Both the position numbers and the translations under genes were made by a program. A stretch of 64,000 nucleotides of DNA from a virus (lineage: Duplodnaviria > Heunggongvirae > Uroviricota > Caudoviricetes): positions 210,787-274,786 of the IMG/VR virus record IMGVR_UViG_3300002834_000024; one strand, written 5' to 3'. This document shows positions 3,519 through 49,768 of the stretch, piece after piece (the stretch's first letter is position 1; each line of letters begins with the position of its first letter). The notes under the pieces were generated by a model that ran no database searches, was not told where the DNA came from, and was given only the letters and a program-made list of their open reading frames with translations.

Positions 3519-3633
3519 AATATTAATTATTTTAATATAAATATGATTAAAACTTGGAATATTGAAATATTTATACTATATTTATAAATGAAATTACAGA
3601 GGTAATTCAAGAAAAAAGAAAATAACAAGGTAA

Positions 3634-4007
3634 AGGAAATTCACAGCAATTTTTTAAAAATTAACAATTATTCAATTCAAAGACCGTAGGGTTGATCTAT
3701 CGGGATCAACAAACAAAAACAAATTTCCTGTCTTTTTTAAAGGAAAACTAACAGCAATTTTTAAACATACAAATTTTAGGCGTGTATTAAAGAGTTTTCC
3801 GTTTTTTTTTTGAAAATTTAGAAATAATCAATATATTTATATTTGATTAAAAATTATATCGTGGGATGGAGAAGTGGTATCTCGTGGGGCCCATAACCCC
3901 AAGATCGCAGGATCGTAACCTGCTCCCGCAACAAACTTATAGGAAAACTAACAGCAATGTTTAAAAACCATCATTCTGAATCAATGACGACATTAAAATG
4001 TTTTCCG
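3634..4007 (+). repeat. Three ACAGCAA stem-loop units (3634-3730, 3741-3801, 3941-4007), candidate small RNAs
   Basis: Each has a GGAAA-containing 5' arm, then ACAGCAAT, an internal hairpin and the complementary TTTCC arm. Confidence 0.65.
3860..3931 (+). tRNA. tRNA-Met(CAT), initiator type
   Basis: C1:A72 mismatch, GGG/CCC anticodon stem, loop CCCATAA. Confidence 0.85.
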
Positions 4008-4056
4008 TTATTTTTTAAAAATTGAACTATTTATAATTCTAAAAGAAATTAAAAAA

Positions 4057-4191
4057 ATGTTTTTAGTAACAATGACATCTTATATTCAAAATTCTATCAA
4101 TTTACGTGGTGGAAATAAGAATAATAAACCCTTTGGTGATGATGAACAACCAAAAGGGCAAGACCTGTTATTGCAAAAATTTGAAACATAA
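4057..4191 (+). CDS. Leader peptide 1 of putative tRNA-array attenuator, MFLVTMTSYIQNSINLRGGNKNNKPFGDDEQPKGQDLLLQKFET (alternative start 4072)
   Basis: Core 4105-4164 has 19 of 20 codons for R,G,N,K,P,D,E,Q, the amino acids of the downstream array; overlaps antiterminator strand 4162-4173. Confidence 0.75.
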   Translation: MFLVTMTSYIQNSINLRGGNKNNKPFGDDEQPKGQDLLLQKFET

Positions 4192-4220
4192 ATGAAGATA
4201 TAAGTTTCCATAGTTTTTCA

Positions 4221-4279
4221 GAGAACTCTCAATAACAAGGTCAAGAATAGGGCAAGTTATTGGGAGTTTTCATTTTTTT
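4221..4279 (+). terminator. Intrinsic terminator of attenuator 1
   Basis: 16-bp stem GAGAACTCTCAATAAC/GTTATTGGGAGTTTTC followed by A and T7. Confidence 0.8.
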
Positions 4280-4322
4280 AACATCCAGTTCAAAAGAGTT
4301 TGAATAATTTGGATTACTTTTG
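4278..4322 (+). promoter_or_regulatory. TTAACATCCAG box plus TActTTTG -7 promoter upstream of tRNA array 1
   Basis: Box 4278-4288; -7 element starts at 4315. Confidence 0.75.
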
Positions 4323-4332
4323 TAAAAAATAT

Positions 4333-4407
4333 GGCGGTATCGTATAACGGTTAGTACGACTGACTTTCGCTCAGTAAATAGGGGTTCGATTCCCCTTACC
4401 GCTACCA
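4333..4407 (+). tRNA. tRNA-Glu(TTC)
   Basis: Cloverleaf, loop CTTTCGC, encoded CCA. Confidence 0.92.
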
Positions 4408-4431
4408 AGAAAGTTCTTTGAAATATAAAAT

Positions 4432-4503
4432 TCCCCTGTAGCTCCAATGTAGAGCGACAGACTGTTAATCTGTGGGTTCGTGGTTCAAGTCCACGCAGGG
4501 GAG
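4432..4503 (+). tRNA. tRNA-Asn(GTT)
   Basis: Cloverleaf, loop CTGTTAA. Confidence 0.92.
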
Positions 4504-4511
4504 CTAAAAAA

Positions 4512-4588
4512 CGAAAGGTAGAGGAGTCTGGTTCCCTCGTCATCTGATGTGCAGGTGGAGTACAATGGTTCAAATCCATTACTTTCGA
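4512..4588 (+). tRNA. Atypical tRNA-like gene (Pro-like body, non-canonical anticodon loop GATGTGC)
   Basis: Acceptor CGAAAG/CTTTCG plus A73; T arm AATGG-TTCAAAT-CCATT; D loop like the next tRNA-Pro. Confidence 0.6.
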
Positions 4589-4595
4589 CTAATAT

Positions 4596-4671
4596 CTAGA
4601 TGTATAGGAGTCTGGTTTATCTAGCTCGCCCTGGAAGCGAGATCACGTTGGTTCAAATCCAACCATCTAGA
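4596..4671 (+). tRNA. tRNA-Pro(TGG), variant loop CCTGGAA
   Basis: CTAGATG/CATCTAG acceptor, CTCGC/GCGAG anticodon stem. Confidence 0.8.
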
Positions 4672-4678
4672 CACAAAT

Positions 4679-4752
4679 GCAGGTGTCGTATAACGGTATT
4701 ATTATATCTGGCTTCCAACCAGAGGACGTGGGTTCGATTCCTATCACCTGCT
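4679..4752 (+). tRNA. tRNA-Gly(TCC)
   Basis: Cloverleaf, loop CTTCCAA. Confidence 0.92.
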
Positions 4753-4762
4753 CAACAAATAT

Positions 4763-4835
4763 GGGATTTGTGGTGTAATGGCTAGCATATAACACTGTCA
4801 CTGTTAAGGTTGGGGTTCGAGTCCCCCAGATCCCG
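4763..4835 (+). tRNA. tRNA-Asp(GTC)
   Basis: Cloverleaf, loop CTGTCAC. Confidence 0.9.
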
Positions 4836-4843
4836 CAAAAAAA

Positions 4844-4916
4844 CGAGTAGTCGCACAGTTGGTAGTGCGCTTGGTTTGGGACCAAGAGGTCGGGAGTTCG
4901 AGTCTCTCCTATTCGA
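4844..4916 (+). tRNA. tRNA-Pro(TGG)
   Basis: Cloverleaf, loop TTTGGGA. Confidence 0.92.
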
Positions 4917-4932
4917 CATAAAAATAGAAATT

Positions 4933-4998
4933 ATGAAGAAGATTTTTAAAATAAAACGAAAACATATGCAGTCCCCATAGTCACTATCGGCTATGGGG
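4933..4998 (+). promoter_or_regulatory. Mini-ORF MKKIFKIKRKHMQSP (4933-4980) overlapping a GC-rich hairpin (4973-4998)
   Basis: CCCCATAGTC/GGCTATGGGG stem; lies directly before the Lys, Arg and Gln tRNAs. Confidence 0.45.
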
Positions 4999-5013
4999 TC
5001 GCTATCAGGCTAT

Positions 5014-5084
5014 TTCCTCATAGTTCAATGGTAGAACTCTACACTTTTAATGTAGATATTCAGGTTCGATTCCTGATGGGGAAA
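5014..5084 (+). tRNA. tRNA-Lys(TTT)
   Basis: Cloverleaf, loop CTTTTAA. Confidence 0.9.
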
Positions 5085-5116
5085 CAAAAAAAAAATAGAT
5101 ATATGATAATTAATAT

Positions 5117-5188
5117 GGTTTCATAGTTCAACGGATAGAATATTTGACTACGGATCAAAAGATGAGGGTTCAAATCCTTCTGAAATCA
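5117..5188 (+). tRNA. tRNA-Arg(ACG)
   Basis: Cloverleaf, loop CTACGGA. Confidence 0.9.
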
Positions 5189-5199
5189 CAAGCATATAT

Positions 5200-5271
5200 T
5201 GTCCTATGGTGTAGTTGGAAACACACATCCCTTTGACGGATGTATCTTTTGTTCGAGGCAAAATGGGACAA
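5200..5271 (+). tRNA. tRNA-Gln(TTG)
   Basis: Cloverleaf, loop CTTTGAC. Confidence 0.85.
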
Positions 5272-5290
5272 CAAATTAAAATATAATGTT

Positions 5291-5593
5291 ATGGATAAAA
5301 TAATGATGTTTGATAAAGAACATGAAGTTCTTGTTAGTAATGATACTAATGGATTAGTATGTGAAACTGAAATGATGAATATGATTGGGAAATCAACAAT
5401 TCCAGTTTTTATGAATAGAAAGCAAAAATTAGAAGAACATGCAAGTTTGTTGTTAAATGATTTAGATGTTGAAATTATTCAATCACATCCAGTTGAACCA
5501 TCTAAAATTCATGTAAAAGTAAAATCATTTGAGGATTGGAAAGAATCTATAAAAGATATACCGCCAATTGGAGTAGTAACCATACCTAATTGA
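5291..5593 (+). CDS. Hypothetical protein (start moved downstream of tRNA-Gln)
   Basis: ORF-track 5240 start overlaps the tRNA; MDKIMMF start near 5291-5292. Confidence 0.5.
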   Translation: MDKIMMFDKEHEVLVSNDTNGLVCETEMMNMIGKSTIPVFMNRKQKLEEHASLLLNDLDVEIIQSHPVEPSKIHVKVKSFEDWKESIKDIPPIGVVTIPN

Positions 5594-5607
5594 TAATACC
5601 ATCTAAT

Positions 5608-5652
5608 TTAACATCCAGTAAAATTTATTTTTATATAAGTTTATTATTTTTG
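5608..5652 (+). promoter_or_regulatory. TTAACATCCAG box plus TAttTTTG promoter
   Basis: Box 5608-5618; -7 element at 5645. Confidence 0.75.
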
Positions 5653-5685
5653 TATCATTATTAACACAAATAATTTAAAAAAGTT

Positions 5686-6033
5686 ATGAGAATTGCATTT
5701 AGGCTTTGTGATAATACAAAACAGTTAAAAACAACTGATAAAAATGCACATGTTTTTGAAAGAGTAGATGATACATTCATAATTCCAAGAAAAGGTGATG
5801 TAGTTGTTTTTTTTGGTATAAAATATGAGGTAATTTCAGTAGAATTTACCTATAAAGAAATATCATTATTAAATATGTATCATGATGAAGCAAAGAAGAT
5901 TTATCCATTTATTGTGGGACAAGATGATAAAATAACAGATACGGTAACTGTTCATTTATTTGAATATAGTCCAAAAATAAAGAAAAAGGGGTTTATTCGC
6001 ACACTTCTTTCACATGGGTTTACTAATTTTTAA
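5686..6033 (+). CDS. Hypothetical protein
   Basis: 115 aa; IPRKGDVV motif resembles LPRKGDFI in 54677..55120. Confidence 0.55.
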   Translation: MRIAFRLCDNTKQLKTTDKNAHVFERVDDTFIIPRKGDVVVFFGIKYEVISVEFTYKEISLLNMYHDEAKKIYPFIVGQDDKITDTVTVHLFEYSPKIKKKGFIRTLLSHGFTNF

Positions 6034-6062
6034 AATTCATATTTATAAGAAAATATGTTTTT

Positions 6063-6302
6063 ATGGAAAAAATTGAAAATATTATAAAAGAAACTATAAC
6101 TGAATATGTTTTGCAACCAGAGGGGTTGGATCAAAAGATTAGAAATAAATTAACACCAATATATAATCTCATTGAAGTATTAAAAATGTATGATAAAGAT
6201 CCAGATCCAAAAATATGGGCGTTTATTATGAAAGAAAACAGTATGGTTGAAAAATCTATTCAAGAGATATTGGAATTAACAAAAGATTATCAACACACTT
6301 AA
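6063..6302 (+). CDS. Hypothetical protein
   Basis: ORF after TATTTATA 6040-6047. Confidence 0.5.
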   Translation: MEKIENIIKETITEYVLQPEGLDQKIRNKLTPIYNLIEVLKMYDKDPDPKIWAFIMKENSMVEKSIQEILELTKDYQHT

Positions 6303-6316
6303 AATCATATAATGTT

Positions 6317-6529
6317 ATGACAGAAAAACAGAAACAAAAAATTTGGAATTTCAAGGATACCAATCTTCAACAATGGCAACATGAAAGAACTATTGTTGAA
6401 AATGAATTATCTAATAATCAATCCATGTTTTGTGTTTGTGGTAAATTAGCCACAGGATTTCATGAAATGAATTGTAGAAAATTCAATGATAAAGTGGATA
6501 TAGAAACTCTTAAAAGATTAAAATTATAA
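6317..6529 (+). CDS. Small Cys/His (zinc-binding-like) protein
   Basis: CVCG...HEMNC. Confidence 0.5.
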   Translation: MTEKQKQKIWNFKDTNLQQWQHERTIVENELSNNQSMFCVCGKLATGFHEMNCRKFNDKVDIETLKRLKL

Positions 6530-6531
6530 AA

Positions 6532-6576
6532 TTAACATCCAGAACACTTTTTATTAATATGTTATGTTTATCTTTG
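6532..6576 (+). promoter_or_regulatory. TTAACATCCAG box plus TAtcTTTG promoter
   Basis: Box 6532-6542; -7 element at 6569. Confidence 0.75.
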
Positions 6577-6629
6577 AGTAATTTTTAGAGATAAAAGGAT
6601 ATTTATTTAGTAGAAAAGATAAAAATAAT

Positions 6630-7361
6630 ATGATTATGAACAAAGATAAAAAAGACTTGATAGTTGAGAGTTATAAGAACAAATTTTCCTTTTTACTTGG
6701 ATATGATCCAGAAATTGGGGGCGAATTGATAGAAGCAAACCACCATAATTTTATGTCAGAAATTATGGGACAAGATTCATTCAATAAACAACCAATGCAA
6801 AGATTAGATGAAATAACAACTGACAGATTGTTAGGAAAACATTATGAAAATGGATTTGTTATTCTGTCAGCATCAAGGAGTGAATTATCCGATGCAGAAA
6901 ATGTAACACGAAATCAAAAACTTTTAAATATTTTACAAAGTAGTAGTAATGTTTTTTCATTTTTACCAGTCTATGGTGGATATATCGAAAATAAGGGTAC
7001 AGAAAACGAACAACGTGTTTTTGAAAGAAGTTTTGTAATCTTGAATTTTGATAAAAATGGTAATGTTGGAGATTTTGATGATTTAATGAGTTTTTCACAA
7101 GAACTTTCTAATCGTTTTCATCAAGAAACATATCTTATCAAAAAACCAGGTAATGCACCACCATATTATATTCGTACAAAAAGTGGCAAGGTAGATTGGG
7201 AATTTACTGGTGAAATCAAAATAGATGATTTAACACAAAAATATTTTACCCGATTAAGACAACTTGGAAAACAATTTACATTTGAAGGTGTTTATATTAA
7301 TCCAAAACCAATGTGTTATAGTGAAAGACATTGTAGATATTTGAAAAATGAAATATTTTAA
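6630..7361 (+). CDS. Hypothetical phage protein (DUF3293-like)
   Basis: GFVILSASR...EN..RN..L...PVYGGY.E...ERSF pattern. Confidence 0.5.
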   Translation: MIMNKDKKDLIVESYKNKFSFLLGYDPEIGGELIEANHHNFMSEIMGQDSFNKQPMQRLDEITTDRLLGKHYENGFVILSASRSELSDAENVTRNQKLLNILQSSSNVFSFLPVYGGYIENKGTENEQRVFERSFVILNFDKNGNVGDFDDLMSFSQELSNRFHQETYLIKKPGNAPPYYIRTKSGKVDWEFTGEIKIDDLTQKYFTRLRQLGKQFTFEGVYINPKPMCYSERHCRYLKNEIF

Positions 7362-7403
7362 CATCCAGAAGATTGTTTTTTAAAAAAATTGTTTGTACTT
7401 TTG
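7358..7403 (+). promoter_or_regulatory. TTAACATCCAG box plus TActTTTG promoter driving a non-coding region
   Basis: Box 7358-7368; -7 element at 7396. Confidence 0.75.
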
Positions 7404-7428
7404 TATCACATATAGAGTAATCTATATT

Positions 7429-7627
7429 GTTTAAATTTAGTTATGAGGATGTGGACTGAATTGTGTGATGTATGTCATTGCAAAATGCACAATTCAAGGG
7501 ATACAGCAAGACAGCTAACAAGGTGAATTAACATCAAAGGGTGAAAATCTCACAAACATAAGGTTGAAAGCCCGTAAAAGAATTTGATGCGTGTTGATTG
7601 TGTAGTAATTATTTTAAACTTTTTTTT
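7429..7627 (+). ncRNA. Candidate structured ncRNA, about 190 nt
   Basis: Own promoter, terminal stem GTTTAAA/TTTAAAC plus T8, internal helices GAATTGTG/CACAATTC and CATCAAA/TTTGATG, GAAA-capped hairpins, no long ORF. Confidence 0.55.
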
Positions 7628-7677
7628 AAAAATTGAATTTATTGACTATTTATAATAAAATTAAAAATTTTTTAACA

Positions 7678-7788
7678 ATGAAACGATTTAGTTTACATAT
7701 TAGTATTACCTTATCAGCAATGGCGTATTGCTGGTTGGTGTCTTATTGTACACTTTTTACACATTTTGGTGGAATTGTTTCAAGTTAA
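7678..7788 (+). CDS. Leader peptide 2 of putative tRNA-array attenuator, MKRFSLHISITLSAMAYCWLVSYCTLFTHFGGIVSS
   Basis: 27 consecutive codons (7687-7767) only for F,S,L,H,I,T,A,M,Y,C,W,V, the amino acids of array 2; last codons form the antiterminator strand. Confidence 0.8.
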   Translation: MKRFSLHISITLSAMAYCWLVSYCTLFTHFGGIVSS

Positions 7789-7819
7789 TATTATATGAAA
7801 TAAAGATAGGAAAGATTAT

Positions 7820-7876
7820 AATCCCCTTGAAACAAATTAGTCAAAAAGTGATGAAAAGTTTTAAGGGGATTTTTTT
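7820..7876 (+). terminator. Intrinsic terminator of attenuator 2
   Basis: 14-bp stem AATCCCCTTGAAAC/GTTTTAAGGGGATT followed by a T-run, ending 2-3 nt before tRNA-Met. Confidence 0.82.
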
Positions 7877-7878
7877 AT

Positions 7879-7950
7879 TGTGTTATAGTTCAGTGGTAGA
7901 ACAGGTGTTTCATAGGCATCAAGTCGGGGGTTCAAATCCCTCTAACGCAA
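7879..7950 (+). tRNA. tRNA-Met(CAT), elongator type
   Basis: Cloverleaf, loop TTCATAG. Confidence 0.85.
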
Positions 7951-7960
7951 CAAATATATT

Positions 7961-8045
7961 GGAGAGTAAACCTGGACATGGGTTAGGGACCGCCTGCTAA
8001 GCGGATCGTTCCGCAAGGAATTTGGATCGAGACCAATGCTCTCCG
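7961..8045 (+). tRNA. tRNA-Ser(GCT)
   Basis: Long variable arm, loop CTGCTAA, G73. Confidence 0.85.
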
Positions 8046-8054
8046 CAAAATTTT

Positions 8055-8146
8055 GGAGGTGTAACCCTAATGTGTAAGGGACTGGTCTTGAAAACCAGCA
8101 GTAATCATGTAAAAGTGATGTGTCAGTTCGAGTCTGACCACCTCCG
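8055..8146 (+). tRNA. tRNA-Ser(TGA)
   Basis: Long variable arm, loop CTTGAAA. Confidence 0.9.
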
Positions 8147-8186
8147 CCTTAATAATGAGGTCTTTGACATGTTGGTAAAAATAAAT

Positions 8187-8274
8187 GAGAGTGCGCTAGC
8201 GTTGGAGAGCTGGGATGGGCTGTAACCCCATTGCCTTTAACAGGGCTTAGTAGGTTCGATTCCTACCACTCTCA
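8187..8274 (+). tRNA. tRNA-Tyr(GTA)
   Basis: Loop CTGTAAC, long variable arm. Confidence 0.9.
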
Positions 8275-8279
8275 CATAT

Positions 8280-8354
8280 GGGAATATCGTATAGGTGGTT
8301 ATTGTACGCTGGACTGAAAATCCAGAGGCTGGGGTTCAACTCCCTGTGTTCCCA
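8280..8354 (+). tRNA. tRNA-Phe(GAA)
   Basis: Loop CTGAAAA. Confidence 0.9.
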
Positions 8355-8364
8355 CAATAAGTGA

Positions 8365-8448
8365 GGGGATGTGGCGAAATTGGTAGTACGCATCGGGTTT
8401 AAGCCCCGATTCCCAAAAGGAGTGTCGGTTCGAGTCCGACCATCCTCA
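8365..8448 (+). tRNA. tRNA-Leu(TAA)
   Basis: Loop TTTAAGC, variable arm. Confidence 0.9.
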
Positions 8449-8456
8449 CAACAAAT

Positions 8457-8541
8457 GGGGATATGGGGGAATTGGCAGACCCGCCTGTTTTAGGAACAGG
8501 TGCAGTAATGCGTGTGAGTTCGAGTCTCACTATCCCTACCA
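8457..8541 (+). tRNA. tRNA-Leu(TAG)
   Basis: Loop TTTAGGA, encoded CCA. Confidence 0.92.
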
Positions 8542-8544
8542 AAT

Positions 8545-8615
8545 GTTCCATTAGCATAATGGTAGTGTACTGGTCTGCAAAACCAGGTGTATCCGTTCAA
8601 TTCGGATATGGAACT
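8545..8615 (+). tRNA. tRNA-Cys(GCA)
   Basis: Loop CTGCAAA, U73. Confidence 0.88.
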
Positions 8616-8629
8616 CAAAAAATATTAAA

Positions 8630-8702
8630 GGGGCTGTCATATAGTTGGCTATTATGATAGATTTGCAATCTATTCACTGGGGTTCGAGACCCCACAGCTC
8701 CA
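8630..8702 (+). tRNA. tRNA-Ala(TGC)
   Basis: G3:U70, loop TTTGCAA. Confidence 0.9.
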
Positions 8703-8708
8703 CAAAAA

Positions 8709-8782
8709 GTTTCTGTATTTCAGTGGTTTAGAATGTTACTCTTACAAGGTAAAGGTCGTTGGTTCAAATCCAACCAGAAACA
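8709..8782 (+). tRNA. tRNA-Val(TAC)
   Basis: Loop CTTACAA. Confidence 0.88.
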
Positions 8783-8792
8783 CTCATAACAT

Positions 8793-8865
8793 TGGCACGT
8801 ATATCAATGGTCAGATTACCACCCTGATAAGGTGGGGGTTACTGGTTCAAGTCCAGTCGTGCCAA
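8793..8865 (+). tRNA. tRNA-Ile(GAT)
   Basis: Loop CTGATAA. Confidence 0.9.
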
Positions 8866-8880
8866 CTAAATTTTTTATAT

Positions 8881-8951
8881 AGGTACATGGTGTAATGGTA
8901 GCATTTTGGTCTCCAAAACCAACGATCAGGGTTCAAATCCTTGTGTACCTG
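8881..8951 (+). tRNA. tRNA-Trp(CCA)
   Basis: Loop CTCCAAA, G73. Confidence 0.92.
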
Positions 8952-8957
8952 CTACAT

Positions 8958-9031
8958 GGTATCGCTGGTGTAATGGTTAGCATGGCACATTGTGAGTGTG
9001 TAGGTTAGGGGTTCAAGTCCCCTGCGATACC
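8958..9031 (+). tRNA. tRNA-His(GTG)
   Basis: G-1:C73, loop TTGTGAG. Confidence 0.88.
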
Positions 9032-9087
9032 CAAATATTTGGAAAACAATTTTAAAAACAGTATTTTTGTATTAAAATTTTAAAAAT

Positions 9088-9594
9088 ATGAATAAAAAAA
9101 TGATTTTATTGTCAATATTAATGACAAGTCTGTTTTATGGTTGTGGAAGTATGGGTAGTGTTGCTGTTAAAAATGTAAATTCATGTACATATAAAATTGT
9201 TAATACAACTTTTATTTATGATTTGTTTGATAGTGATGAAGAATATGAAAATAAATTTAGGTTAATTAAATTAGCAATTTATGATATATTTCCTAATATG
9301 GATGGTAACACATTTTTATTTGATGATGAATTAAAAGTTATTCAAGGAAAAATGATTTATAATGTACATACAGATTCTTTTTTTGGAACAAAATATGAAG
9401 GGAGAAGTAATTTCAAAATTATTAATAATAAGATAACATTTAGTAATCCCGAAATATTTTTTTTACCATCTCGTTATAGTAGTGGTGGGTGGGAGAAAAT
9501 ACCAAATGAGGGAACTATATCTGAAAAAACCGCATGTAATACAATAGATGTGTGGGAAAAAATGGTAATAAAACTTTTAGAAAACATAAAATGA
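9088..9594 (+). CDS. Putative lipoprotein located within tRNA array 2
   Basis: Signal peptide with LFYGC lipobox-like site; TAttTTTG at 9062. Confidence 0.6.
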   Translation: MNKKMILLSILMTSLFYGCGSMGSVAVKNVNSCTYKIVNTTFIYDLFDSDEEYENKFRLIKLAIYDIFPNMDGNTFLFDDELKVIQGKMIYNVHTDSFFGTKYEGRSNFKIINNKITFSNPEIFFLPSRYSSGGWEKIPNEGTISEKTACNTIDVWEKMVIKLLENIK

Positions 9595-9599
9595 TTAAT

Positions 9600-9671
9600 G
9601 CTTCTGTAGTTCAATGGCTAGAACATCTGCTTTGTAACCAGAAAATATCAGTTCGATTCTGATCAGAAGCT
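9600..9671 (+). tRNA. tRNA-Thr(TGT)
   Basis: Loop TTTGTAA; C31:C39 mismatch. Confidence 0.85.
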
Positions 9672-9871
9672 CTCAATTTTTACCAACAAAATGTCAAAAG
9701 AATTATATAATTGGTTAGAATTTCGTTTCAGACATGATAATTTAAAAAAATATCATAAATATTTTCAACAATGGGTTGATAATATAACTGAAAATCAAGT
9801 TCAAGGTTTTTATAATCAATTTACCAGTTTCATAGGTCAAGATATAATTTGGAAACCATAATTTACCAACA

Positions 9872-13055: not shown

Positions 13056-13217
13056 ATGGCAAAGAAAAAAGGATGCGGTTGTTTCATAGGCGGATTTGGC
13101 GTTGGTTCAGTCCTTGCTATGATATTAAGTTTTATGAAGTGGAACTCAATACTGTGGACATTGTTTCATGGTTGTCTTGGATGGATTTATGTTATTTATT
13201 ATGTAATCTTTTTATAA
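13056..13217 (+). CDS. Small membrane protein (53 aa, not in ORF track)
   Basis: MAKKKGCGCFIGGFGVGSVLAMILSFMKWNSILWTLFHGCLGWIYVIYYVIFL. Confidence 0.6.
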   Translation: MAKKKGCGCFIGGFGVGSVLAMILSFMKWNSILWTLFHGCLGWIYVIYYVIFL

Positions 13218-24549: not shown

Positions 24550-24621
24550 GGTCCTGTAGTATAATGGACAGTACATAAAACTTCTAATTTTAGAGTGATG
24601 GTTCAATTCCATCCAGGATCA
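24550..24621 (+). tRNA. tRNA-Arg(TCT)
   Basis: Cloverleaf, loop CTTCTAA. Confidence 0.88.
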
Positions 24622-26982: not shown

Positions 26983-27055
26983 TGTCCTTTCCTCTAGTTG
27001 GTTAGGAGACATGACTCATAATCATGCAAGCTCGGTTCGATGCCGAGAGGGACAA
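26983..27055 (+). tRNA. tRNA-CAT (probably Ile2, lysidine type, or Met)
   Basis: Cloverleaf, loop CTCATAA; third CAT tRNA in the window. Confidence 0.8.
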
Positions 27056-48601: not shown

Positions 48602-49768
48602 ATGAGTAAAAAAATCATTACAAGTGAATTTGTTTCTTGGGGGCATCCTGATAAGATAGCTGACCAAATTGCTGATGCTATTTTGGGTGAGTATCTAAAA
48701 CAAGATCCTAAATCGAGAACTGGTATCGAAGTGTTAATCAAGGATAATATTGTTGTTCTGGGTGGTGAAATTAAATCGAAAGGTAAAGTAGATTATGATA
48801 CAATTGTTCGAGATGTATTCAAAAAATTACCATTTCCATCAAATCATGGTCTTTTACCTGAAAATATTAAGATAATTAATCTAATTGGAAAACAATCAAG
48901 TGAAATTAGCTTAGGTGTTGATCAATCGGAAGATATAATTGGTGCAGGTGATCAGGGGTTTATGGTTGGTTATGCTTCCAATGAAACAGATGAATATCTA
49001 CCACTTGGTGTATATATTGCTAAACATATTTGCCAATATGTCAGTAAACAAACTAATCTTGGATTTGGTCCAGATACCAAAACCCAAGTAATTGTTGAAT
49101 ATGATGAGGATTATAACTCTATAGTTAAATCTATACTTGTTTCAACTATGCACCAGGGGATATTAGACCATGATCGAATGAGAGTCAAGGCTATGATTTC
49201 ATCTAATGCAATGGGTATTAACAATGATATATTTAACAAACATATTTTCAACAATCCTGAACTTCAAGTTGATGTTAATCCATGCGGTTCATGGCAAACT
49301 GGTGGACCTGTATCTGATTGTGGTGTAACTGGACGCAAAATAGTTGTGGATGCTTATGGTGGGTATGCAAATGTGGGTGGCGGATGTCAAAGTGGAAAAG
49401 ATCTCTCTAAAGTAGACAGATCGGCAGCATATATGGCTCGATATTTAGCAAAAAATATTGTAGCAAGTCGTATTGCTGATACTTGTAAGGTAGAATTGTC
49501 TTATATGATTGGTGTTCCTGAACCATCTTCAATTAACATTGAAATGAATAGAAGTCAACATTTGGTTGATGATATTAAACAATACATTTCAGATAATATA
49601 AAACTTACACCGAAATTTATTATAGATAAATTCAGTAATTGTTTTGATCCTTATAAAACAGCTGTTGATGGACATTATGGAAATAGTGATGATTGTTGGG
49701 AAAAAATTGAATTTAGTGATGATTTGATTAATTATCTGATGTATTTATCAGAAAACGAACCTGCATGA
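48602..49768 (+). CDS. metK: S-adenosylmethionine synthetase
   Basis: GHPDKIADQI, GAGDQG, D.GVTGRKIVVD.YGG, GKDLSKVDRSAAY. Confidence 0.95.
   Translation: MSKKIITSEFVSWGHPDKIADQIADAILGEYLKQDPKSRTGIEVLIKDNIVVLGGEIKSKGKVDYDTIVRDVFKKLPFPSNHGLLPENIKIINLIGKQSSEISLGVDQSEDIIGAGDQGFMVGYASNETDEYLPLGVYIAKHICQYVSKQTNLGFGPDTKTQVIVEYDEDYNSIVKSILVSTMHQGILDHDRMRVKAMISSNAMGINNDIFNKHIFNNPELQVDVNPCGSWQTGGPVSDCGVTGRKIVVDAYGGYANVGGGCQSGKDLSKVDRSAAYMARYLAKNIVASRIADTCKVELSYMIGVPEPSSINIEMNRSQHLVDDIKQYISDNIKLTPKFIIDKFSNCFDPYKTAVDGHYGNSDDCWEKIEFSDDLINYLMYLSENEPA

Follow-up and report, generated by a model that had tools for sequence, protein, structure and literature searches.

What is the role of two short open reading frames (ORFs) that stand, each followed by a strong hairpin, directly before the two transfer RNA (tRNA) arrays of a large phage? 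The stretch of DNA analysed here (the window) is the terminal 64 kb of the 274,786-base virus record IMGVR_UViG_3300002834_000024 (Caudoviricetes), which is linear and estimated to be 74% complete; the elements of the two array loci described below lie on the plus strand. An earlier reading, made from the letters alone and called here the sequence-only reading, had claimed that the two ORFs encode leader peptides of ribosome-mediated attenuators, that their codons spell the amino acids of the array behind them, and that each array is transcribed only when one of its tRNAs runs short. Computational analysis of the window and of related phages makes the larger part of this claim quite probable. 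The locus is best read as a pair of codon-matched attenuators exerting negative feedback on tRNA supply, which would gate array 2 fully and one of the two promoters of array 1.

Array 1 (4333–5272) contains Glu, Asn, an odd tRNA-like gene, Pro, Gly, Asp, Pro, Lys, Arg-ACG, and Gln. Array 2 (7879–9672) contains Met, Ser-GCT, Ser-TGA, Tyr, Phe, Leu, Leu, Cys, Ala, Val, Ile, Trp, His, a 168-aa ORF, and Thr. ARAGORN and Rfam supplied these calls, except for the Ser-GCT gene (7960–8048), which both missed and whose fold is nevertheless that of a tRNA with a long arm and GCT in the loop; the array contents given earlier are borne out in full. The 20 amino acids are divided 8/12 between the arrays with no overlap, unless the odd gene in array 1 (4512–4589) acts as a tRNA-Thr. 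ARAGORN called this gene Thr(TGT) and Rfam gave it no score; its body is like that of the adjacent Pro gene, its anticodon loop is abnormal, and a pseudogene, a decoy, and an altered tRNA are candidate readings. Three further tRNAs lie outside both arrays, namely an initiator-like Met at 3860, Arg-TCT at 24550, and a CAT tRNA at 26983. The split between the arrays also tracks chemistry: array-1 codons never have U at position 1 or 2, and the amino acids of this array are those of the glutamate family together with Asp, Asn, Lys, and Gly. In a distant relative (G001, described below) the amino acids are divided differently.

Leader ORF 1 encodes 39 aa (4072–4191, with an alternative in-frame ATG at 4057) and leader ORF 2 encodes 36 aa (7678–7788). 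Both start codons are preceded by TAACAATG, and the shared layout described earlier, with upstream motifs, start context, short ORF, and a terminator before the tRNAs, is present at both arrays. All 8 array-1 amino acids occur inside codons 12–26 of leader 1. Codons 4–30 of leader 2 all specify array-2 amino acids, and all 12 of these occur inside codons 4–21. The cores picked out in the sequence-only reading have the composition stated there, with 19 of 20 residues and all 8 amino acids from array 1 in leader 1, and 27 of 27 residues and all 12 amino acids from array 2 in leader 2. Such composition is rare: it was found in 0 of 74,355 20-mers and 0 of 72,836 27-mers of the phage proteome, and in 2 (leader 1) and 0 (leader 2) simulated random peptides per 300,000. 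When the whole ORFs were scored and no core was chosen, the binomial p values were 0.0096 for leader 1 and 1.7e-5 for leader 2. The strongest of the chance tests on composition is the scoring of all 125,970 possible 8/12 splits, in which the real split lies at the maximum, tied with one other; it ties for best whether the sensing windows or the whole ORFs are scored. Together the two leaders sample all 20 amino acids.

Each leader is followed by a predicted intrinsic terminator with a run of seven T. Terminator 1 (4223–4279) consists of a hairpin with a 14-bp stem (4223–4269, −18.3 kcal/mol) and a T-run at 4273–4279, and terminator 2 (7820–7876) of a hairpin (7820–7871, −20.7 kcal/mol) and a T-run that reaches 7876. 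A generic promoter and terminator scan called neither of them. The folding z-scores of the leader regions were −3.9 (leader 1) and −4.6 (leader 2). At both leaders, folding also showed that the 5′ arm of the terminator can pair instead with the 3′ portion of the ORF, as had been claimed. The antiterminator strand of leader 1 (segment 2, codons 31–34, 4162–4173) pairs with 4230–4242, the 5′ arm and loop of the terminator, in a duplex of −13.4 kcal/mol. Segment 2 of leader 2 (7754–7784) is an inverted repeat whose core (7775–7784) pairs with 7826–7835, and its extended pairing reaches across 7826–7857. In full-length minimum free energy folds with no ribosome, the start-codon region pairs with segment 2 in both leaders in the manner of a trp-like protector (segment 1 of leader 1, 4070–4081). 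Partial transcripts with no ribosome, unlike the full-length ones, fold the antiterminator.

Nascent transcripts were then folded with a ribosome footprint of −15 to +14 placed at every codon. Predicted capture of the terminator 5′ arm persists through codon 27 of leader 1 and declines beyond it; in leader 2 the last such position is codon 29. Pairing of this arm with upstream RNA drops from 0.51 to 0.28–0.14 at codons 28–29 of leader 1, and from 0.76 to 0.48–0.31 at codons 30–31 of leader 2. All array amino acids precede the switch point (8 by codon 26 in leader 1, 12 by codon 21 in leader 2), and the unbroken matching run of leader 2 stops at codon 30, the position of the predicted flip. The sequence-only reading had named folding with and without a footprint as a check on itself, and the outcome agrees with it, since capture of the arm is lost downstream of all array amino acids. 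Equilibrium folding of the full leaders was dropped as proof of switching, because in the window the terminator wins at every ribosome position.

Two metagenome contigs, L001 and L002, carry close relatives of the locus; the neighbouring protein is 72–75% identical to that of the window phage. Leader-1 orthologs are present at L001:11073–11180 and L002:12726–12842, and leader 1, segment 2, the terminator, and the putative protector are kept in all three phages. Few parts of leader 1 are conserved as well as segment 2, whose core is retained in L001 (p = 0.005) and L002 (p = 0.09). The protector helix is a consensus of the three phages with one two-sided change, and the early codons of leader 1 form a hairpin with further two-sided changes, so compensatory stem changes, another check named at the outset, were found in these parts of leader 1. 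Both leaders are probably translated. For leader 1, translation is suggested indirectly by three length changes among the three phages, all multiples of three that keep the frame, together with the A-rich start context. The folding of L001 is sharper than that of the window, with an equilibrium terminator probability mostly <0.25 to codon 25 and >0.9 from codon 26. The array of L001 and L002 contains Glu/Asn/Asp/Pro/Lys/Arg. The window has a tRNA-Gln gene and two Gln codons in the core of leader 1; in the available stretches of L001 and L002 there is no intact tRNA-Gln, and their leader cores have no Gln. L002 retains a degenerate Gln-like relic near 13157 and its leader is entirely free of Gln, and L001 keeps one Gln at leader codon 6, in a contig that ends soon after tRNA-Lys. 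The leader of L002 contains Gly codons, and tRNA-Gly was not found in L002. Arg is the lone suggestive case at the level of isoacceptors: CGN codons, read by the ACG tRNA of the array, are used in all three leader-1 orthologs, and 70% of the Arg codons in the genome are AGA/AGG.

Evidence also exists that leader composition follows array content over larger distances. G001 is a 367-kb phage genome whose capsid protein is 71% identical to that of the window phage. At one of its loci, TATTTATAAT is followed by an ORF of 31 codons, then by a terminator and tRNA genes for Thr, Tyr, Glu, His, Asp, Asn, Gln, Pro, and Leu. In this leader, codons 11–19 read LPETYHNDQ, a permutation of exactly the nine array amino acids (about 1e-5 by chance), and the run lies upstream of the antiterminator. 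The same ORF, terminator, and array layout was seen in several of 20 further array regions. A leader matched its own array better than under permutation, with p = 0.004 for 8 other phages and p = 0.02 for the subset of 6 that carry the promoter motif, where the array blocks were set by hand-made gap rules revised once after a first pass and kinship was uncorrected; this support for co-variation is moderate. The co-variation that the earlier account had called for is therefore seen in G001, in the Gln pattern of L001 and L002, and in the permutation. Two side observations come from the same survey. A 42-codon leader in G003 (L035:2063–2278) has 7 Arg codons and a terminator before three Arg isoacceptor genes and tRNA-Asn; the Arg triplet overlaps segment 2, making the geometry less clear. 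A leaderless second array of G001 (L030, G001:C1:68900–69400) has, by eye, an apparent tmRNA-like gene between tRNA-Glu and tRNA-Lys.

Promoter-like elements precede both leaders. The 14-mer TTTTAAAAATTGAA stands at 4013, followed by TATTTATAAT at 4028, before leader 1 (element 4013–4037), and the same 14-mer stands at 7624, with TATTTATAAT at 7647, before leader 2 (element 7624–7656). The 14-mer has exactly two occurrences in the 275-kb record, one per leader. Twenty ORF starts have the motif TATTTATA within 60 nt, compared with 8 for its reverse orientation, and the motif clusters 23–31 nt upstream of gene starts; one copy is 98 nt upstream of the major capsid gene. Because of this clustering and the copy near the capsid gene, TATTTATA is read as a late promoter, and the leader promoters are probably late and used with a phage sigma factor.

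A predicted promoter of another kind lies behind terminator 1. This bypass promoter (4279–4322) combines a TAACATCCAG box with a Bacteroidota −7 element, TACTTTTG, at 4315–4322; it begins in the T-run of terminator 1, directly precedes tRNA-Glu, and is repeated in L001 and L002 with element and spacing unchanged. The consensus of the Bacteroides −7 promoter element is TAnnTTTG (PMC7366714), and 25 of the 42 TAACATCC sites in the genome have TAnnTTTG at exactly 36–37 nt downstream. The fixed spacing of the TAACATCCAG box suggests a site for a phage activator or repressor. This bipartite class occurs, for example, at window positions 4279, 5609, 6533, 7359, 11574, and 23279, and it was absent from five distant relatives. 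A second such host-type promoter (7359–7403) lies 5′ of leader 2. It probably reads into leader 2, across a region without strong structure (7400–7635, z −0.8), and its output would probably be gated by that leader. Terminator 2 ends 2 nt before tRNA-Met with no promoter motif in between; the first motifs inside array 2 are at 8658 and 9062, the latter a TAnnTTTG motif belonging to the 168-aa ORF upstream of tRNA-Thr. Since the bypass promoter sits between terminator 1 and tRNA-Glu, array 1 can be transcribed with no read-through. The sequence-only reading accordingly stands in one part and falls in another: attenuators matched to their arrays agree with the composition, footprint geometry, conservation, and co-variation, but transcription only when a tRNA is short is not supported for array 1.

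The mechanism that fits these features best would run as follows. Host RNA polymerase would initiate at the TATTTATAAT promoter, probably late and with a phage sigma factor, and a ribosome would follow on the leader. With fast decoding, the ribosome would cover segment 2, the terminator would form, and the RNA would end near 4279 or 7876. A slow codon before about codon 27 (leader 1) or 29 (leader 2) would leave segment 2 free to capture the terminator 5′ arm, and the array would be transcribed. The new tRNAs would decode the same leader codons and so close a negative feedback loop on tRNA supply. Array 2 would rely on read-through. Array 1 would be served by the ungated host-type promoter behind the terminator, with the attenuator adding a conditional, probably late, supply. 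The trigger that such an output could cure is loss or cleavage of a tRNA, and amino-acid starvation would be expected to trip the switch as well. Depletion or cleavage is the likely selective trigger, because more tRNA helps when tRNA is lost and not when it is merely uncharged. A trigger of this type would fit the view of phage tRNAs as counter-defence, and also the S-adenosylmethionine (SAM) lyase family gene between the arrays.

Several observations weigh against this account or narrow it. The match does not reach significance at the level of isoacceptors, where 13 were observed for leader 2 with 10.9 expected, and 3 for leader 1 with 2.9 expected. Selectivity is incomplete: codons 2–11 of leader 1 mostly specify array-2 amino acids and would also respond to a shortage of array-2 tRNAs, a stall there being predicted to free the antiterminator too. 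Cross-talk between leader 1 and array 2 is therefore likely; the hairpin formed by these early codons may explain their composition. The antiterminator duplexes are just modestly better than those of random genome segments (p = 0.023 for leader 1 and 0.052 for leader 2). In the window, the terminator state is favoured over the antiterminator state by 9–12 kcal/mol, so any switching has to be kinetic and to involve a pause; both the polymerase pause and the coupling of transcription to translation in the host are assumed. Conservation of the leader ORFs, which the original proposal had made a check, was found for leader 1 in L001 and L002 with its in-frame changes and not for leader 2, for which searches by protein, neighbouring genes, and DNA patterns gave no ortholog and a search of GenBank phages returned single-tRNA matches only. 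A leader of this kind is missing from many arrays of related phages, the second one of G001 among them, and the match between leader and array is weak in the candidates G014, G004, and G017. The hand-set blocks and uncorrected kinship of the permutation belong here as well.

Other explanations draw on some of these same points. The leaders could be translated attenuators that sense a general slowdown of translation, caused by antibiotics, ribosome damage, or uncoupling, and the array match would then be secondary and confer little true selectivity. The antiterminating, array-2-like start of leader 1 would suit such a sensor, as would the joint coverage of 20 amino acids and the single leader of G017, which samples nearly all of them. 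A general sensor would need neither a split that is optimal among all those possible nor a leader that follows its array as in G001, and it is considered unlikely. Somewhat less probable again is an arrangement in which constitutive terminators end small transcripts and the leaders are vestigial, with the arrays driven from promoters downstream or through an antitermination protein of the phage. The bypass promoter behind terminator 1 and the dominance of the terminator at equilibrium in the window speak for such an arrangement. It sits poorly with array 2, where terminator 2 almost touches tRNA-Met and promoter motifs appear only inside the array, and it is further opposed by the conservation of segment 2 and by G001, which has a matched leader and no bipartite TAACATCCAG-type promoter.

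The matched composition could also be a coincidence of polar and non-polar residues in two functional peptides, a polar one encoded by leader 1 and a hydrophobic membrane peptide encoded by leader 2. Array 1 does hold polar and charged amino acids plus Gly and Pro, the hydrophobic amino acids fall to array 2, and leader 2 is hydrophobic. Hydrophobicity alone is insufficient for leader 2, because 0 of the 134 hydrophobic 27-mers of the proteome contain all 12 array-2 residues; even a random 27-mer made only of array-2 residues contains all 12 in just 3% of cases. A protein search of 1.8 billion representatives gave no comparable small-protein relative of leader 2. The array of G001 mixes the array-1 and array-2 classes of the window and its leader follows, which removes the polar/non-polar explanation. 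Functional peptides are strongly disfavoured by G001 and are very improbable overall.

In addition to the two codon-matched attenuators, a third short ORF is nested in array 1. Mini-leader 3 (4933–4980, 15 aa) has five Lys codons in codons 2–10, and its orthologs of 12 aa are at L001:11845–11883 and L002:14646–14684. It runs into a GC-rich hairpin with no T-run (4973–4998, z −5.3), 15 nt before tRNA-Lys (5014–5085). The 3′ arm of this hairpin can alternatively pair with the 5′ end of tRNA-Lys, and in each phage the 5′ arm is similar to the 5′ end of the tRNA-Lys encoded there; 9 of 9 pairs are kept in the three phages, 4 of them with two-sided changes. With a ribosome at codons 2–10, footprint folding forms the acceptor stem of tRNA-Lys with a probability mostly of 0.9–0.99. 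With a ribosome at codons 12–13, which are the last codon and the stop in L001 and L002, this probability is 0.01–0.22. The stop of the mini-leader in the window comes three codons later, where the probability is 0.55, so the switch may be weakened there. In a control, shortening of the upstream RNA also disrupted many other tRNAs (e.g., those at 8457 and 5117). As invasion in silico is not specific by itself, the case for a lysine switch rests on conservation. Whether the mini-leader decides if tRNA-Lys folds, as an added lysine-specific step, is about evenly balanced. A layered tRNA homeostat, in which two multiplex attenuators audit all 20 amino acids and the nested Lys leader gates the folding and maturation of pre-tRNA-Lys, is a tentative reading that falls a little short of even. 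If it is true, the element would be a ribosome-controlled tRNA-folding switch that needs no terminator, acting on a tRNA that is cleaved by PrrC-type nucleases, and such control at the step of tRNA folding may be new in kind.

The phage encodes a T4-type Gp23 capsid protein and is a T4-like jumbo phage; a 347-kb contig encodes the same proteins. Two sigma-70-like proteins are encoded in the record, and neither an RNA polymerase subunit nor RtcB was found in the 74% of the genome that it is estimated to cover. Window DNA is present in termite gut metagenomes from two studies, with no RNA run among those listed as carrying it, and a second termite-gut DNA run contained both leaders with zero differences, so it added no variation. 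All 148 long genes examined lack a Shine-Dalgarno motif, and start regions are A-rich; starts of this kind are known in Bacteroidetes (PMC7366714), and a Bacteroidota host is inferred. The SAM lyase family gene (6630–7361; PF23780, E 3.5e-7, above the curated cut-off) likely has an anti-defence role. The same phage has a SAM synthetase gene at 48602–49768, an odd pair of opposite activities. Three units flank the initiator-like tRNA-Met (window 3630–4015), each closed by a GGAAA...GTTTTCC or TTTCC stem and containing an unpaired ACAGCAA motif and a T-run. Two of them are conserved in L001 (L001:10795–11025), their folding is weak (z −0.2 to −2.1), and they are possibly Y-RNA-like partners. A DUF2828 match in the phage genome is likewise weak (E 3.8e-5, below the cut-off). 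Directly upstream of the tRNA locus in L002 is a Cas12f/TnpB-like gene (PF07282), followed by a CRISPR-like array with about five copies of a 36-nt palindromic repeat and unique spacers (L002:10658–12510).

The purpose of phage tRNA genes has been open for more than 50 years according to one account (PMC10264068), and the debate is between codon compensation and counter-defence. A codon-matched sensor would make part of the tRNA supply depend on slow decoding, and the bypass promoter points to two phases of supply, one ungated and one on demand. The leader would serve as a ready-made reporter of which tRNAs fail in infection. Attenuation, so far a matter of enzyme genes and one to three amino acids, would come to cover entire sets of tRNAs and to feed back on them directly.

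Leader-peptide attenuators of amino-acid operons include trpL, hisL, and pheL, and the multivalent thrL (Thr/Ile) and ilvGMEDA (Ile/Leu/Val). The phage leaders follow the same order, from a promoter through a short ORF containing the regulatory codons, a putative protector, and an antiterminator to an intrinsic terminator, and their regulatory codons lie one ribosome footprint upstream of segment 2. The classical features, namely a codon-enriched ORF, a terminator, a mutually exclusive antiterminator, and appropriate codon placement, are all predicted. The differences are that the leaders are phage-encoded and control tRNAs instead of enzymes, that they sample 8 and 12 amino acids with mostly one to four codons each, whereas the operon leaders have codon runs for one to three amino acids, that two leaders divide the 20 amino acids, and that the output acts directly on the sensed variable. 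Because their targets are tRNA genes, they fall outside the amino-acid-operon families in the strict sense. The pheST attenuator (pheM leader) controls phenylalanyl-tRNA synthetase of E. coli. It too acts on a part of the translation machinery and responds to charged tRNA supply, but it concerns one amino acid, a protein-coding target, and a cellular gene. T-box riboswitches bind one uncharged tRNA directly, with no translated leader, and some are reported to lie upstream of tRNA genes in Firmicutes. They share the tRNA-dependent choice between terminator and antiterminator; T-box identity of the phage leaders was ruled out, since Rfam gave no T-box match at the gathering score or at E up to 1.

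General accounts of transcription attenuators with leader peptides are available (PMC4833913). The nearest functional analogue is the stress-induced trn operon (L-array) of Anabaena PCC 7120, a long tRNA array that is silent until translation is impaired and is repressed by TrcR (PMC8421152, PMC10272220). The L-array differs in being plasmid-borne and under a protein repressor of the ribbon-helix-helix type, with no codon-level sensing described, and also in its anatomy and in the group of its host; the terms "attenuat" and "leader" are absent from the NAR paper on it. Phage tRNAs have been discussed as counter-defence against anticodon nucleases (PMC10264068, PMC7824862), and the likely purpose, replacement of host tRNAs depleted in infection, would be shared; passages in these papers treat tRNA content and cleavage resistance, not sensor-controlled transcription. 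Searches of the open literature, a collection short of most subscription journals, yielded no description of leader-peptide control of tRNA genes, in line with the earlier statement that no attenuator with a multi-amino-acid leader was known for such genes. The particular contributions of this locus are that the 20 amino acids are divided completely between two arrays, that a bypass promoter is present, and that there is a candidate Lys folding switch. Overall, the comparison suggests that the phage leaders use classical attenuation by mechanism and are new in target and breadth.

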